This document shows, piece after piece, positions 26,826 through 28,552 of a stretch of DNA of 32,756 nt (positions within the stretch are counted from its first letter, which is position 1; every line of letters begins with the position of its first letter). Made by a program: the position numbers and the translations under genes. The notes beneath the pieces are model-generated. The model had not been told where the DNA came from. It worked only from the letters and a program-made list of their open reading frames with translations, and ran no database searches. This DNA comes from a virus (lineage: Duplodnaviria; Heunggongvirae; Uroviricota; Caudoviricetes), in the IMG/VR virus record IMGVR_UViG_2541047689_000008. One strand, written 5' to 3'.

Positions 26826-26878
26826 TGTTAGCCATAACATACAAAACCACTTGACCAATATGTTAGCCATGACTAATC
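26826..26878. promoter_or_regulatory. Operator-like half-site repeats upstream of the ydfA-dicB operon (candidate dicB promoter/operator)
   Basis: ATGTTAGCCATAACAT and TGTTAGCCATGACTAATC resemble the TTGTTAGTCATGACTAACAA operator. Confidence 0.45.
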
Positions 26879-26956
26879 TTGTTTACATCAACACACCGCA
26901 CGGTGTTCTCAGCAAACAGTTCCGCCACCCCGGCGTTAAGGGGAAATGAGGTCAGC

Positions 26957-27112
26957 ATGGATACTATCGATCTTGGCAACAACGAATCTCTGGTATGTGG
27001 CGTGTTCCCCAACCAGGACGGCACGTTCACCGCGATGACGTATACCAAAAGCAAAACGTTTAAAACCGAAAATGGTGCCCGTCGCTGGCTGGAAAGAAAC
27101 TCAGGTGAGTGA
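26957..27112 (+). CDS. ydfA: YdfA-like small protein
   Basis: MDTIDLGNNESLVCGVFPNQDGTFTAMTYTKSKTFKTENGARRWLERNSGE (51 aa). GAGG upstream. Confidence 0.8.
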   Translation: MDTIDLGNNESLVCGVFPNQDGTFTAMTYTKSKTFKTENGARRWLERNSGE

Positions 27113-27113
27113 T

Positions 27114-27689
27114 ATGGATTTCGACACAATCATGGAAAAGGCTTACGAAGAATACTTCGAAGGCCTTGCCGAAGGCGAAGAAGCTCTCAGCTTCAGTGAG
27201 TTTAAACAGGCACTCAGAATAAGAATGTGCTCTCACAATGACGCGGAACACAAATATGAGAAGCAAAATCAGACCGCAGAAAATTTTGTTCTGGAACCCG
27301 GAGAAACGCTTTTCAAAATTCCCGTTACGTGCCCCATTTGCGGTTTTACATCAGAAGAACTTGACGACTCCTGTAACAATCAGGAAACAACCAAGTATGT
27401 CGAAGATGATACCGAGTGCGCACGAAGAACGATTATAGCCACGAGTCCAAACTCCAGGACCAATAAATCTCACTTTGAGAGGGTGATTAATCCACTCCCC
27501 CAAACCAATAAAAAAGATGCCGGAGGACAAAAAACCCAATGGAACAACGGGATATCTGTCAAAAAAAGACGTTCCATTAAAGACAAACAACGCAGCGCCA
27601 ACAACTGTAAGCGCTTTATACCAGTAATCAATTTTCATGTTCTTAAGCGGATTTATTGGTGGTTGCGACATTGCTTAATGAATCCTTAA
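27114..27689 (+). CDS. YdfB-like protein, long form (191 aa) with internal CPxCG zinc-ribbon-like motif
   Basis: Starts MDFDTIMEKAYEEYFEGLAEGEEALSFSEFKQAL (YdfB-like), 1 nt after the ydfA stop. The basic low-complexity C-terminal third may be run-on translation. Confidence 0.55.
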   Translation: MDFDTIMEKAYEEYFEGLAEGEEALSFSEFKQALRIRMCSHNDAEHKYEKQNQTAENFVLEPGETLFKIPVTCPICGFTSEELDDSCNNQETTKYVEDDTECARRTIIATSPNSRTNKSHFERVINPLPQTNKKDAGGQKTQWNNGISVKKRRSIKDKQRSANNCKRFIPVINFHVLKRIYWWLRHCLMNP

Positions 27690-27947
27690 AACTGTGGTGA
27701 TTTTAAGGATACCACCTCGCCTGACGTGGTTAAAAGCAGGCACACAACACGAAAGCGCACGGCGAAGTTCGTCTCACTGTACGGTGTCGTTAAATTTAAT
27801 TCGACCGTGCGCTTCCGGTTGTGGCAACCCGCGAAATGGCGCGGCGGTAAGTATGGCGGGGTTATTCCTTCCCCGTAGAGGACACCGAGTTGTCAGGTTG
27901 ACCATACGCTTAAGTGACAACCCCGCTGCAACGCCCTCTGTTATCAA

Positions 27948-28006
27948 TTTTCTGGTGACGTTTGGCGGTATCAGTTTTACTCCGTGACTGCTCTGCCGCC
28001 GTTTTT
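27948..28006 (+). ncRNA. dicF: DicF small RNA (antisense regulator of ftsZ)
   Basis: TTTCTGGTGACGTTTGGCGGTATCAGTTTTACTCCGTGACTGCTCTGCCGCCGTTTTT matches recalled DicF. Lies between the ydfB-like gene and dicB as in K-12. Confidence 0.8.
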
Positions 28007-28175
28007 AAAGTGAGTTTTGTGATGCGGTGAATGCGGCTAAGCGCACGCGGAACAGTTAAAACCAAAAACAGTGTTATGGGTGGATTCTCTGTATCCGGCG
28101 TTAATTGTTAACTGGTTAACGTCACCTGGAGGCACCAGGCACTGCATCACAAAATTCATTGTTGAGGACGCGATA

Positions 28176-28364
28176 ATGAAAACGTTATTACCAAACGTTA
28201 ATACGTCTGAAGGTTGTTTTGAAATTGGTGTCACTATCAGTAACCCTGTATTTACTGAAGATGCCATTAACAAGAGAAAACAAGAACGGGAGCTATTAAA
28301 TAAAATATGCATTGTTTCAATGCTGGCTCGTTTACGTCTGATGCCAAAAGGATGTGCACAATGA
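28176..28364 (+). CDS. dicB: Cell division inhibitor DicB
   Basis: MKTLLPNVNTSEGCFEIGVTISNPVFTEDAINKRKQERELLNKICIVSMLARLRLMPKGCAQ (62 aa). GAGGA upstream. Confidence 0.9.
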   Translation: MKTLLPNVNTSEGCFEIGVTISNPVFTEDAINKRKQERELLNKICIVSMLARLRLMPKGCAQ

Positions 28365-28552
28365 ATTCAGCATTTGCGCTTGTTCTGACAGTTTTTCTTG
28401 TTTCCGGAGAGCCAGTTGATATTGCAGTCAGTGTTCACAGGACAATGCAGGAGTGTATGACTGCAGCAACCGAACAGAAAATTCCCGGTAACTGTTACCC
28501 GGTCGATAAAGTTATTCACCAGGATAATATCGAAATCCCGGCAGGTCTTTAA
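28361..28552 (+). CDS. ydfD: YdfD-like small membrane (lysis-type) protein
   Basis: MNSAFALVLTVFLVSGEPVDIAVSVHRTMQECMTAATEQKIPGNCYPVDKVIHQDNIEIPAGL (63 aa). ATG overlaps the dicB stop. Confidence 0.8.
   Translation: MNSAFALVLTVFLVSGEPVDIAVSVHRTMQECMTAATEQKIPGNCYPVDKVIHQDNIEIPAGL

Follow-up and report, generated by a model that had tools for sequence, protein, structure and literature searches.

The stretch of viral DNA analysed here, IMG/VR record IMGVR_UViG_2541047689_000008 (32,756 nucleotides (nt); hereafter the window, to whose positions all coordinates refer), carries a dicB operon with the small RNA DicF directly behind a dicA repressor gene. The locus belongs to a Qin-like lambdoid prophage of Escherichia coli, of which it forms the immunity and early-left region. 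The cell-division-inhibitor operon of dicB and DicF, with its operators, is an already-known system, and there is nothing new in its DicF and dicB part. Between ydfA and DicF, however, where E. coli K-12 has the short ydfB, an open reading frame (ORF) of 191 amino acids (aa) is found, which the initial annotation had taken for an extended YdfB with a CPxCG motif and a basic tail. Analysis revealed that this long frame is a new variant of the known operon, nested antisense over a conserved gene that had escaped annotation. The features concerned are the following.

27114 to 27689, plus strand: 191-aa chimeric ORF, with the N-terminus of YdfB in codons 1-34 and the early-operon ORF of the cassette in the remainder
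27215 to 27731: 517-bp cassette replacing the 3' end of ydfB, ydfC and about 120 bp of K-12 sequence (blastn against K-12)
27351 to 27671, minus strand: gene for a 106-aa protein with three predicted transmembrane (TM) helices, missed by the initial annotation (homologues, substitution pattern, model)
27318 to 27347, plus strand: conserved IPxxCPxCGF block of the plus-strand ORF, just 5' of the overlap (synonymous codon variation)
27682 to 27710: hairpin ATCCTTAAAA / TTTTAAGGAT, 11-39 nt upstream of the ATG of the membrane-protein gene; folds in every lineage
27706 to 27743: conserved element AGGATACCACCTCGCCTGACGTGGTTAAAAGCAGGCAC, about 38 nt, adjoining the hairpin; core invariant across lineages

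Comparison with K-12 by blastn shows homology over 26301-27214 (96.5% identity) and again from 27732 onwards (97.4%). The 191-aa ORF begins with an ATG 1 nt past the ydfA stop codon. K-12 YdfB has 42 aa, and since homology to K-12 ends at 27214, only the first 34 codons of the long frame are YdfB; phrog_2061 likewise matches residues 1-34 only. The frame at 27114-27689 with its CPICG motif and basic tail therefore exists as first described, but it is not a long YdfB. It arose by cassette exchange, through which ydfB codons 1-34 were fused in frame to the ORF of the incoming module. An AlphaFold model of the 191-aa product, built on a shallow alignment, has a mean predicted local distance difference test score (pLDDT) of 46 and exceeds 70 only in the YdfB part, which is modelled as helices. 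The Prokaryotic Genome Annotation Pipeline (PGAP) treats the plus frame either as a truncated ydfB pseudogene, "incomplete, missing C-terminus" (RefSeq locus L001), or as a 191-aa hypothetical protein, WP_000344958.1 (locus L003).

The initial annotation had made its reading dependent on conservation of the long frame. Of 5,426 complete E. coli genomes, 805 (about 15%) have the cassette, 783 of them at 99% identity or more, and the complete arrangement is seen again in about 790, likewise at 99% identity or more. A decayed copy was observed in the E. coli YSP8-1 type (L124), where frameshifts break both the membrane-protein gene and the plus-strand ORF and a 66-aa remnant is left. Sixty deposited phage genomes match the dicBF region (e.g. 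PP925841.1, our locus L004, and OV696610.1), and the deposited genome of phage HannyBb carries this very cassette at 99.1% identity; a 2016 paper found no DicB or DicF matches in phage genome databases (PMC5069750). In some prophages (P0066, P0067, P0070; ENA and Logan contigs) the plus-strand ORF of the cassette runs stop-free through the conserved element into ydfC (MQKREPVIIAPD...), giving called proteins of 245-271 aa. Since the ORF continues into ydfC in these prophages, cassette and ydfC are not mutually exclusive. A relationship between ydfC and the cassette ORF was considered and rejected (BLASTP E = 17); ydfC instead follows the cassette in frame in some prophages.

Residues 80-186 of the 191-aa frame are the exact antisense of the 106-aa gene on the minus strand. 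Homology searches retrieved 60 homologues of 95-111 aa, many of them full length at 34-58% identity (Yersinia, Herminiimonas, Reinekea and metagenomes), which share the invariant motifs YWYKA (DYWYKA) and GxGEWxNHP. A profile search with the family returned 486 clusters, nearly all of 95-115 aa, and a genome scan extended it across Proteobacteria and beyond, into many phyla. The AlphaFold model of the 106-aa protein reaches a pLDDT of 83.6 and displays TM helices at residues 17-32, 42-62 and 85-105 together with a beta hairpin. From where its positive charges lie, an N-in/C-out topology is predicted. Judged from its homologues and from the substitution pattern described below, the minus-strand gene is real and conserved.

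No known function could be attached to it by similarity. The 106-aa protein has no match in Pfam, PHROGs or NCBIfam, and the PADLOC-DB defence models matched neither the protein of either strand nor the homologues. Foldseek searches with the model found no structure in PDB or BFVD at E <= 1e-3. Longer members of the family contain no informative domain save one PsbP_2 fusion, and over 25 loci outside enterobacterial prophages no conserved neighbour was detected; a DUF5677 neighbour in Herminiimonas does not recur. Literature searches by protein accessions and PHROG identifier found nothing, and the minus strand of the cassette bears no annotation in the RefSeq records examined, which were a spread of 40 of the 805. 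A terminator scan found none directly 3' of the stop codon of the gene. Scans of viral contigs for more diverged phage lineages were empty with P0014 and returned mostly E. coli copies with P0013. In an Arcobacter sp. chromosome (NZ_CP182343.1) three copies of a gene of this family (L024, L025, L026) have identical tblastn statistics, which suggests carriage on a repeated mobile element.

We wondered which of the two frames is under selection in the overlap. The frames are registered such that codon position 3 of the minus frame coincides with codon position 1 of the plus frame. Differences between the window and locus L122 fall on minus codon positions 1, 2 and 3 in the numbers 11, 7 and 35. 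Expressed as codon changes, 30 are synonymous and 17 nonsynonymous in the minus frame, as against 5 and 42 in the plus frame, and other sequence pairs agree with this bias. Polymorphism among 25 E. coli variants points in the same direction: at 12 sites the change is silent only in the minus frame, at 4 only in the plus frame, and two polymorphisms create plus-frame stops with the membrane-protein gene intact. By this pattern of substitution, the overlap evolves as a predicted membrane-protein gene read in the minus frame. Because evolution follows the minus frame, the "basic tail" of the plus frame is largely a by-product of hydrophobic codons read backwards.

Every prophage homologue examined lies beside a CI-like repressor and antisense to early-left genes. 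The same slot is occupied in other strains by sieB or by other small antisense genes, and the 106-aa gene shares position and orientation with the SieB family: within the early-left operon, antisense to it and near the repressor.

Upstream of the membrane-protein gene, the hairpin at 27682-27710 was compared by folds of the individual sequences. Its arms change in a compensatory manner between lineages (AAAA/TTTT, AAAGC/GCTTT, AAAGG/CCTTT). The 3' arm, on the minus strand, holds the Shine-Dalgarno sequence of the membrane-protein gene, and the stop codon of the plus-strand ORF lies in the other arm. In transcripts that include the 5' arm, the hairpin would sequester this Shine-Dalgarno sequence. 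The adjoining element follows the pattern AGGATACCAC-N3-GCCTGA-N-GTGG-TTAAAAG-CAGGC (CAGGCAC), and its core is invariant across lineages whose membrane-protein genes are only 51-58% identical. Interleaved complementarity (CCAC/GTGG and GCCTG/CAGGC) was also observed within it. Its reverse complement reads TTAACC, 16 nt, TGGTATCCT, the latter being the reverse complement of 27706-27714, and we infer that TGGTATCCT is a candidate extended -10 promoter of the antisense gene. The element was looked for in K-12 and is absent. It is also not specific to the cassette, an idea that was rejected on the ground that most of its occurrences lack the membrane-protein gene. In two further loci it stands 33-37 nt upstream of unrelated genes antisense to the early-left operon (L208, 3692-3714; L126, near 1408); the one in L126, of the E. 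coli YSP8-1 type, is a 66-aa gene, WP_000159335.1, antisense behind the element. From this distribution, the element appears to be a control region common to the genes that enter the slot.

Is the plus frame then only a shadow of the minus-strand gene? In the given register, stops can arise in the plus frame only opposite minus-frame TTA, CTA and TCA codons. None of these occurs in the 106 codons of the window, of L008-L011 (58% aa identity) or of the Yersinia loci L005-L007 (51%), although these stop-free lineages have 8-11 leucine codons and a third-position G+C content of 0.36-0.43. Given local codon usage, the probability of finding no stop is 0.055 for the window, 0.005 for L008 and 0.008 for L005. 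The joint probability for the three saturated lineages lies between about 1e-3 and about 2e-6, because the baseline can be taken either empirically (about 10%) or from codon usage. Outside the enterobacterial prophage clade, ten homologues carry 3-17 TTA, CTA or TCA codons.

The open plus frame always extends 5' past the stop codon of the membrane-protein gene into the conserved IPxxCPxCGF block (LFKIPVTCPICGFTS in the window, IFSIPIECPICGFRS in Yersinia, ICFIPTECPICGFVS in L008). Across 13 haplotypes the seven invariant residues of this block vary synonymously (ATT/ATC/ATA, CCC/CCA/CCG/CCT, TGC/TGT, GGT/GGA, TTT/TTC), and the variable columns are distributed over codon positions 1, 2 and 3 as 4, 2 and 8. 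Since this synonymous variation occurs in sequence outside the overlap with the membrane-protein gene, it is a coding signature. The plus-strand ORF of Rac-like prophages (beginning MGIQKQ...) has, immediately ahead of its start, the Shine-Dalgarno sequence used by ydfA in the window. The CPxCG motif noticed at the outset thus stands in a conserved block with a coding signature, but its reading as a zinc ribbon is not supported, because the second cysteine pair is not conserved: there is a single CPxCG, the downstream cysteines are absent in L008 and L007, and similarity is weak both to rubredoxin-like proteins (Pfam, E 0.13) and to Lar-like ones (PHROG, E 0.24). Over the overlap the plus strand is A-rich and has more C than G. 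Stop counts and block together are evidence that the plus frame is more than a random shadow and is kept translatable. A rule that every antisense cassette in the slot needs an open frame on the operon strand was rejected: the sieB cassette has no long antisense ORF, and stop avoidance is therefore not a general requirement of the operon.

The remainder of the locus consists of the following features.

26313 to 26332, no strand: operator palindrome TTGTTAGTCATGACTAACAA between dicA and dicC (repeat families D1, I1/I2; homologous to K-12)
26383 to 26790, plus strand: dicA repressor gene, 135 aa (ORF list; named dicA in the 100%-identical RefSeq locus L001)
26826 to 26876: two operator-like repeats, at 26826-26841 and 26861-26876, upstream of ydfA (repeat search D1)
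26957 to 27112, plus strand: ydfA (DUF1391), 51 aa (Pfam PF07151, 2.6e-29; annotated ydfA in L001)
27751 to 27816, plus strand: long hairpin GAAAGCGCACGG / CCGTGCGCTTCC within the GC-rich leader (27725-27948) upstream of DicF (minimum free energy structure; shared with K-12)
27949 to 28006, plus strand: DicF small RNA, 53 nt, with U tail (RF00039; 52 of 53 nt as in K-12)
28176 to 28364, plus strand: dicB, 62 aa (PF05358, 1.9e-40; NF049927)
28361 to 28552, plus strand: ydfD (DUF1482), 63 aa (PF07358, 2.1e-26)
28646 to 31117, plus strand: exonuclease gene, intact, 823 aa, the next early-operon gene after ydfD (truncated by IS2 in K-12)

The arrangement ydfA - DicF - dicB - ydfD had been recognised from the sequence, and the K-12 gene order together with Rfam, Pfam and NCBIfam matches confirms it; L001 is 100% identical over 26800-28600 and has the same features annotated. 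The repeats ahead of ydfA had likewise been related to the dicA/dicC palindrome, and the repeat search indeed found the motif TGTTAGYCATRAC at 26826-26841 and 26861-26876, matching the palindrome at 26315-26330; the two copies are 75% and 94% identical to the operator half. They flank a -35-like hexamer, TTGACC (26851-26856), which we read as part of a putative promoter; the consensus promoter scan did not call this site.

DicF, placed at 27948-28006 by the initial annotation, is the same element as the RF00039 match at 27950-28001 on the plus strand, plus the U tail. By cmscan the match scores 72.5 bits (gathering score 48; E 2.5e-14) and spans model positions 1-52 of 52, all consensus stem pairs being standard and the terminator stem intact. 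The sole change relative to K-12 MG1655 is C to G at 28001, the last base ahead of the U run; TTTTT follows the stem at 28002-28006, and dicB starts 170 nt downstream. In K-12, DicF pairs with ftsZ, xylR and pykA mRNAs; its 5' end is made by RNase E and its 3' end by the terminator or RNase III (PMC5069750). With pairing regions as defined in that paper, the sequences for ftsZ and pykA (3' part) and for xylR (5' part) are retained by identity to K-12 DicF, so by comparison with K-12 DicF the loss of ftsZ complementarity, named at the outset as a possible refutation, is not indicated: position 28001 alone differs. The stretch 27690-27947 had been called GC-rich and structured. Its G+C content is indeed 0.55-0.57 over 27725-27949, as against about 0.42 in the flanks, while as to structure it folds modestly better than shuffled sequences (z = -2.5; 2 of 100 shuffles as good).

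DicB is recognised by PF05358 (136.8 bits, cutoff 27) and NF049927 (132.8 bits, cutoff 100), and its protein accession in L001, WP_000854559.1, is that of K-12. From the 3' end of DicF to the dicB start runs a sub-threshold Rfam match to STnc100 (RF02076; 27999-28208, plus strand; 34.1 bits, gathering score 47, E 3e-5), which suggests that this Salmonella small RNA candidate corresponds to a dicB leader. Elsewhere in the window, two cspA-thermoregulator matches (RF01766; 14702-15087 and 17597-17989, minus strand; 112.8 and 158.8 bits) mark cold-shock gene leaders, as in Qin, and a sok antitoxin RNA match (RF01794; 21543-21717, minus strand; 117.1 bits) implies a hok/sok-type toxin-antitoxin locus in the prophage.

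Taking anatomy, homology, selected frame, avoidance of stops and the block's coding signature as observed, we regard the following as the probable and best explanation: in a known Qin-like operon, cassette exchange produced a chimeric ORF, a lysogen-type membrane-protein gene of the sieB slot lies nested antisense within it, and the plus frame is kept translatable. In the lysogen, DicA would keep the operon off and the membrane protein would be made from its own promoter, for which TGGTATCCT is the candidate. The 106-aa product would be an accessory inner-membrane protein expressed in lysogeny, most plausibly acting in phage exclusion or defence. Upon derepression, convergent transcription of the operon would run antisense through the membrane-protein gene and silence it. 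The stop-free plus frame would then let ribosomes translate through the A-rich, G-poor antisense stretch of about 320 nt. Such translation would yield a CPxCGF peptide with a basic tail unconstrained in sequence, and/or would shield the transcript and so still allow expression of DicF and dicB further downstream. A more far-reaching version, put forward tentatively as possible rather than probable, is that of a nested antiparallel pair: the same 320 bp would encode both a three-TM protein expressed in lysogeny and the selection-opened tail of an early CPxCGF protein, transcription set by DicA would decide which is made, and translation of the antisense strand would be needed to reach DicF and dicB.

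Several observations weigh against this explanation. The exclusion function is proposed from position, because the 106-aa protein has no family, defence or fold match and no conserved neighbour. The candidate promoter TGGTATCCT is below the threshold of the consensus scan, and the conserved element occurs in at least 120 viral contigs, most of them without the 106-aa gene. As to the plus frame, about 10% of 106-codon windows in long ORFs of the same loci are stop-free, and on that baseline the joint probability is only about 1e-3. Its aa identity in the overlap across saturated lineages is marginally above a null of minus-frame constraint (p = 0.07-0.19). Natural plus-frame nonsense variants with an intact membrane-protein gene exist in L110, L121 and L123, the last by GGA to TGA within the IPxxCPxCGF motif itself, and the sieB cassette does without a long antisense ORF.

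Much of this speaks for a rival account, in which only the membrane-protein gene functions, the plus frame is a shadow left open by chance or codon bias, and conservation of the CPxCGF block has a non-coding cause, for example the 3' end or a terminator of the membrane-protein gene. Of the 47 codons that changed, 42 did so nonsynonymously in the plus frame; this, a plus-frame identity not significantly above the null, the natural nonsense alleles, the share of comparable windows that are stop-free anyway (about 10%) and the disordered model of the 191-aa product all count in its favour. However, the three saturated lineages are all stop-free in spite of being AT-rich, leucine-rich and not codon-optimised (CTG is 1 of 10 leucine codons). 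The block varies mainly at plus third positions and synonymously, and neither hairpin nor T-run was found there. Block, open frame and start codon with Shine-Dalgarno sequence always stand in one register, and open frame and block co-occur in the prophage clade only. We therefore hold the shadow account to be unlikely, if still a serious competitor. The opposite possibility, that the 191-aa ORF is the sole real gene, a long zinc-ribbon protein of the YdfB family with the 106-aa ORF as its shadow, draws on gene callers, which usually select the plus ORF as the longer one (1,798 member sequences in P0061), on its match to phrog_35040 and on its annotation in some RefSeq records. It is very improbable: full-length minus-frame homologues exist in distant bacteria where the plus frame has 3-17 stops, substitutions and polymorphisms track the minus frame, plus-frame homologues are confined to enterobacteria, down to about 50% identity, the second cysteine pair is not conserved and only 34 aa are YdfB. 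Finally, the long frame had been suspected of being a frameshift artefact relative to K-12, and a frameshift or sequencing error in ydfB would suit the PGAP tag "incomplete, missing C-terminus" on the ydfB remnant of L001. Because what separates the window from K-12 is not an indel but a replacement by 517 bp of other sequence, with clean breakpoints in the alignment, the frame is neither frameshift nor artefact; 783 complete genomes have the same sequence at 99% identity or more, phage HannyBb carries it too, and an artefact is hardly conceivable.

The cassette has several consequences for annotation and experiment. In some 800 complete E. coli genomes, as far as can be told from the RefSeq records examined, a conserved membrane-protein gene is left unannotated or is masked by a "hypothetical protein", itself chimeric, called on the wrong strand, which is an annotation error. 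The family of the 106-aa gene, with about 500 clusters, is uncharacterised; since the gene lies in the sieB slot, it is a candidate for phage exclusion that can be tested. A stop-free antisense frame joined to a coding block of its own is a compact and tractable case for asking whether antiparallel overlapping frames are selected, and why; candidate reasons would be a protein product or shielding of the operon transcript from polarity. With the cassette, a gene convergent to the operon also comes to lie between DicF and the dicB promoter, which could alter expression of the toxic operon in carrier strains.

Among known systems, one of the closest is the dicBF operon of K-12 Qin (ydfA-ydfB-ydfC-DicF-dicB-ydfD under DicA/DicC control). 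Gene order, repressor and operator repeats are alike, nucleotide identity in the flanks is 96-97%, DicF agrees in 52 of 53 nt and the dicB protein accession is the same. In contrast to K-12, the cassette with its antisense membrane-protein gene and CPxCGF ORF here replaces the 3' end of ydfB and all of ydfC, the AGGATACCAC... element is absent from K-12, and the exonuclease gene, truncated by IS2 there, is intact. With its exonuclease intact, and with replication and ydaT-family genes present in the window upstream of dicC, this prophage has decayed less than Qin of K-12.

A second comparison is with shadow ORFs and with the overlapping antisense genes that have been proposed in E. coli, as this register commonly gives long open frames opposite real genes. 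The present case shares with ordinary shadow ORFs the register and the restriction of antisense stops to sense TTA, CTA and TCA codons; it differs in that openness is kept across saturated lineages and that the frame is joined to a non-overlapping coding block.

The sieB/esc/sas systems of P22, lambda and Rac resemble the locus in that a lysogeny-type gene lies inside the early-left operon in opposite orientation, and in strain RM9513 sieB occupies exactly this slot, after ydfA. In P22 the choice between sieB products is under the control of an antisense RNA, sas (PMC12197685). On the other hand, sieB has no sequence or hidden Markov model similarity to the 106-aa protein (Pfam, NCBIfam, PHROG); the RM9513 copy is frameshifted, with a longest remaining frame of 151 aa as compared with 106 aa here, and its cassette lacks a long antisense ORF.

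The last comparison is with Pseudomonas phage Fc02, where the lysogenic exclusion genes olg1 and olg2 are antiparallel to the early lytic gene 10, where products of both strands are reported to show exclusion, and where expression was followed by strand-specific RNA-seq (PMC9936078). Although Fc02 is a Mu-like phage with unrelated host and sequences, and the overlap described here is fully nested, both systems have the same organization, namely lysogenic-strand genes adjacent to the repressor that are overlapped by a gene of the early lytic operon on the other strand.

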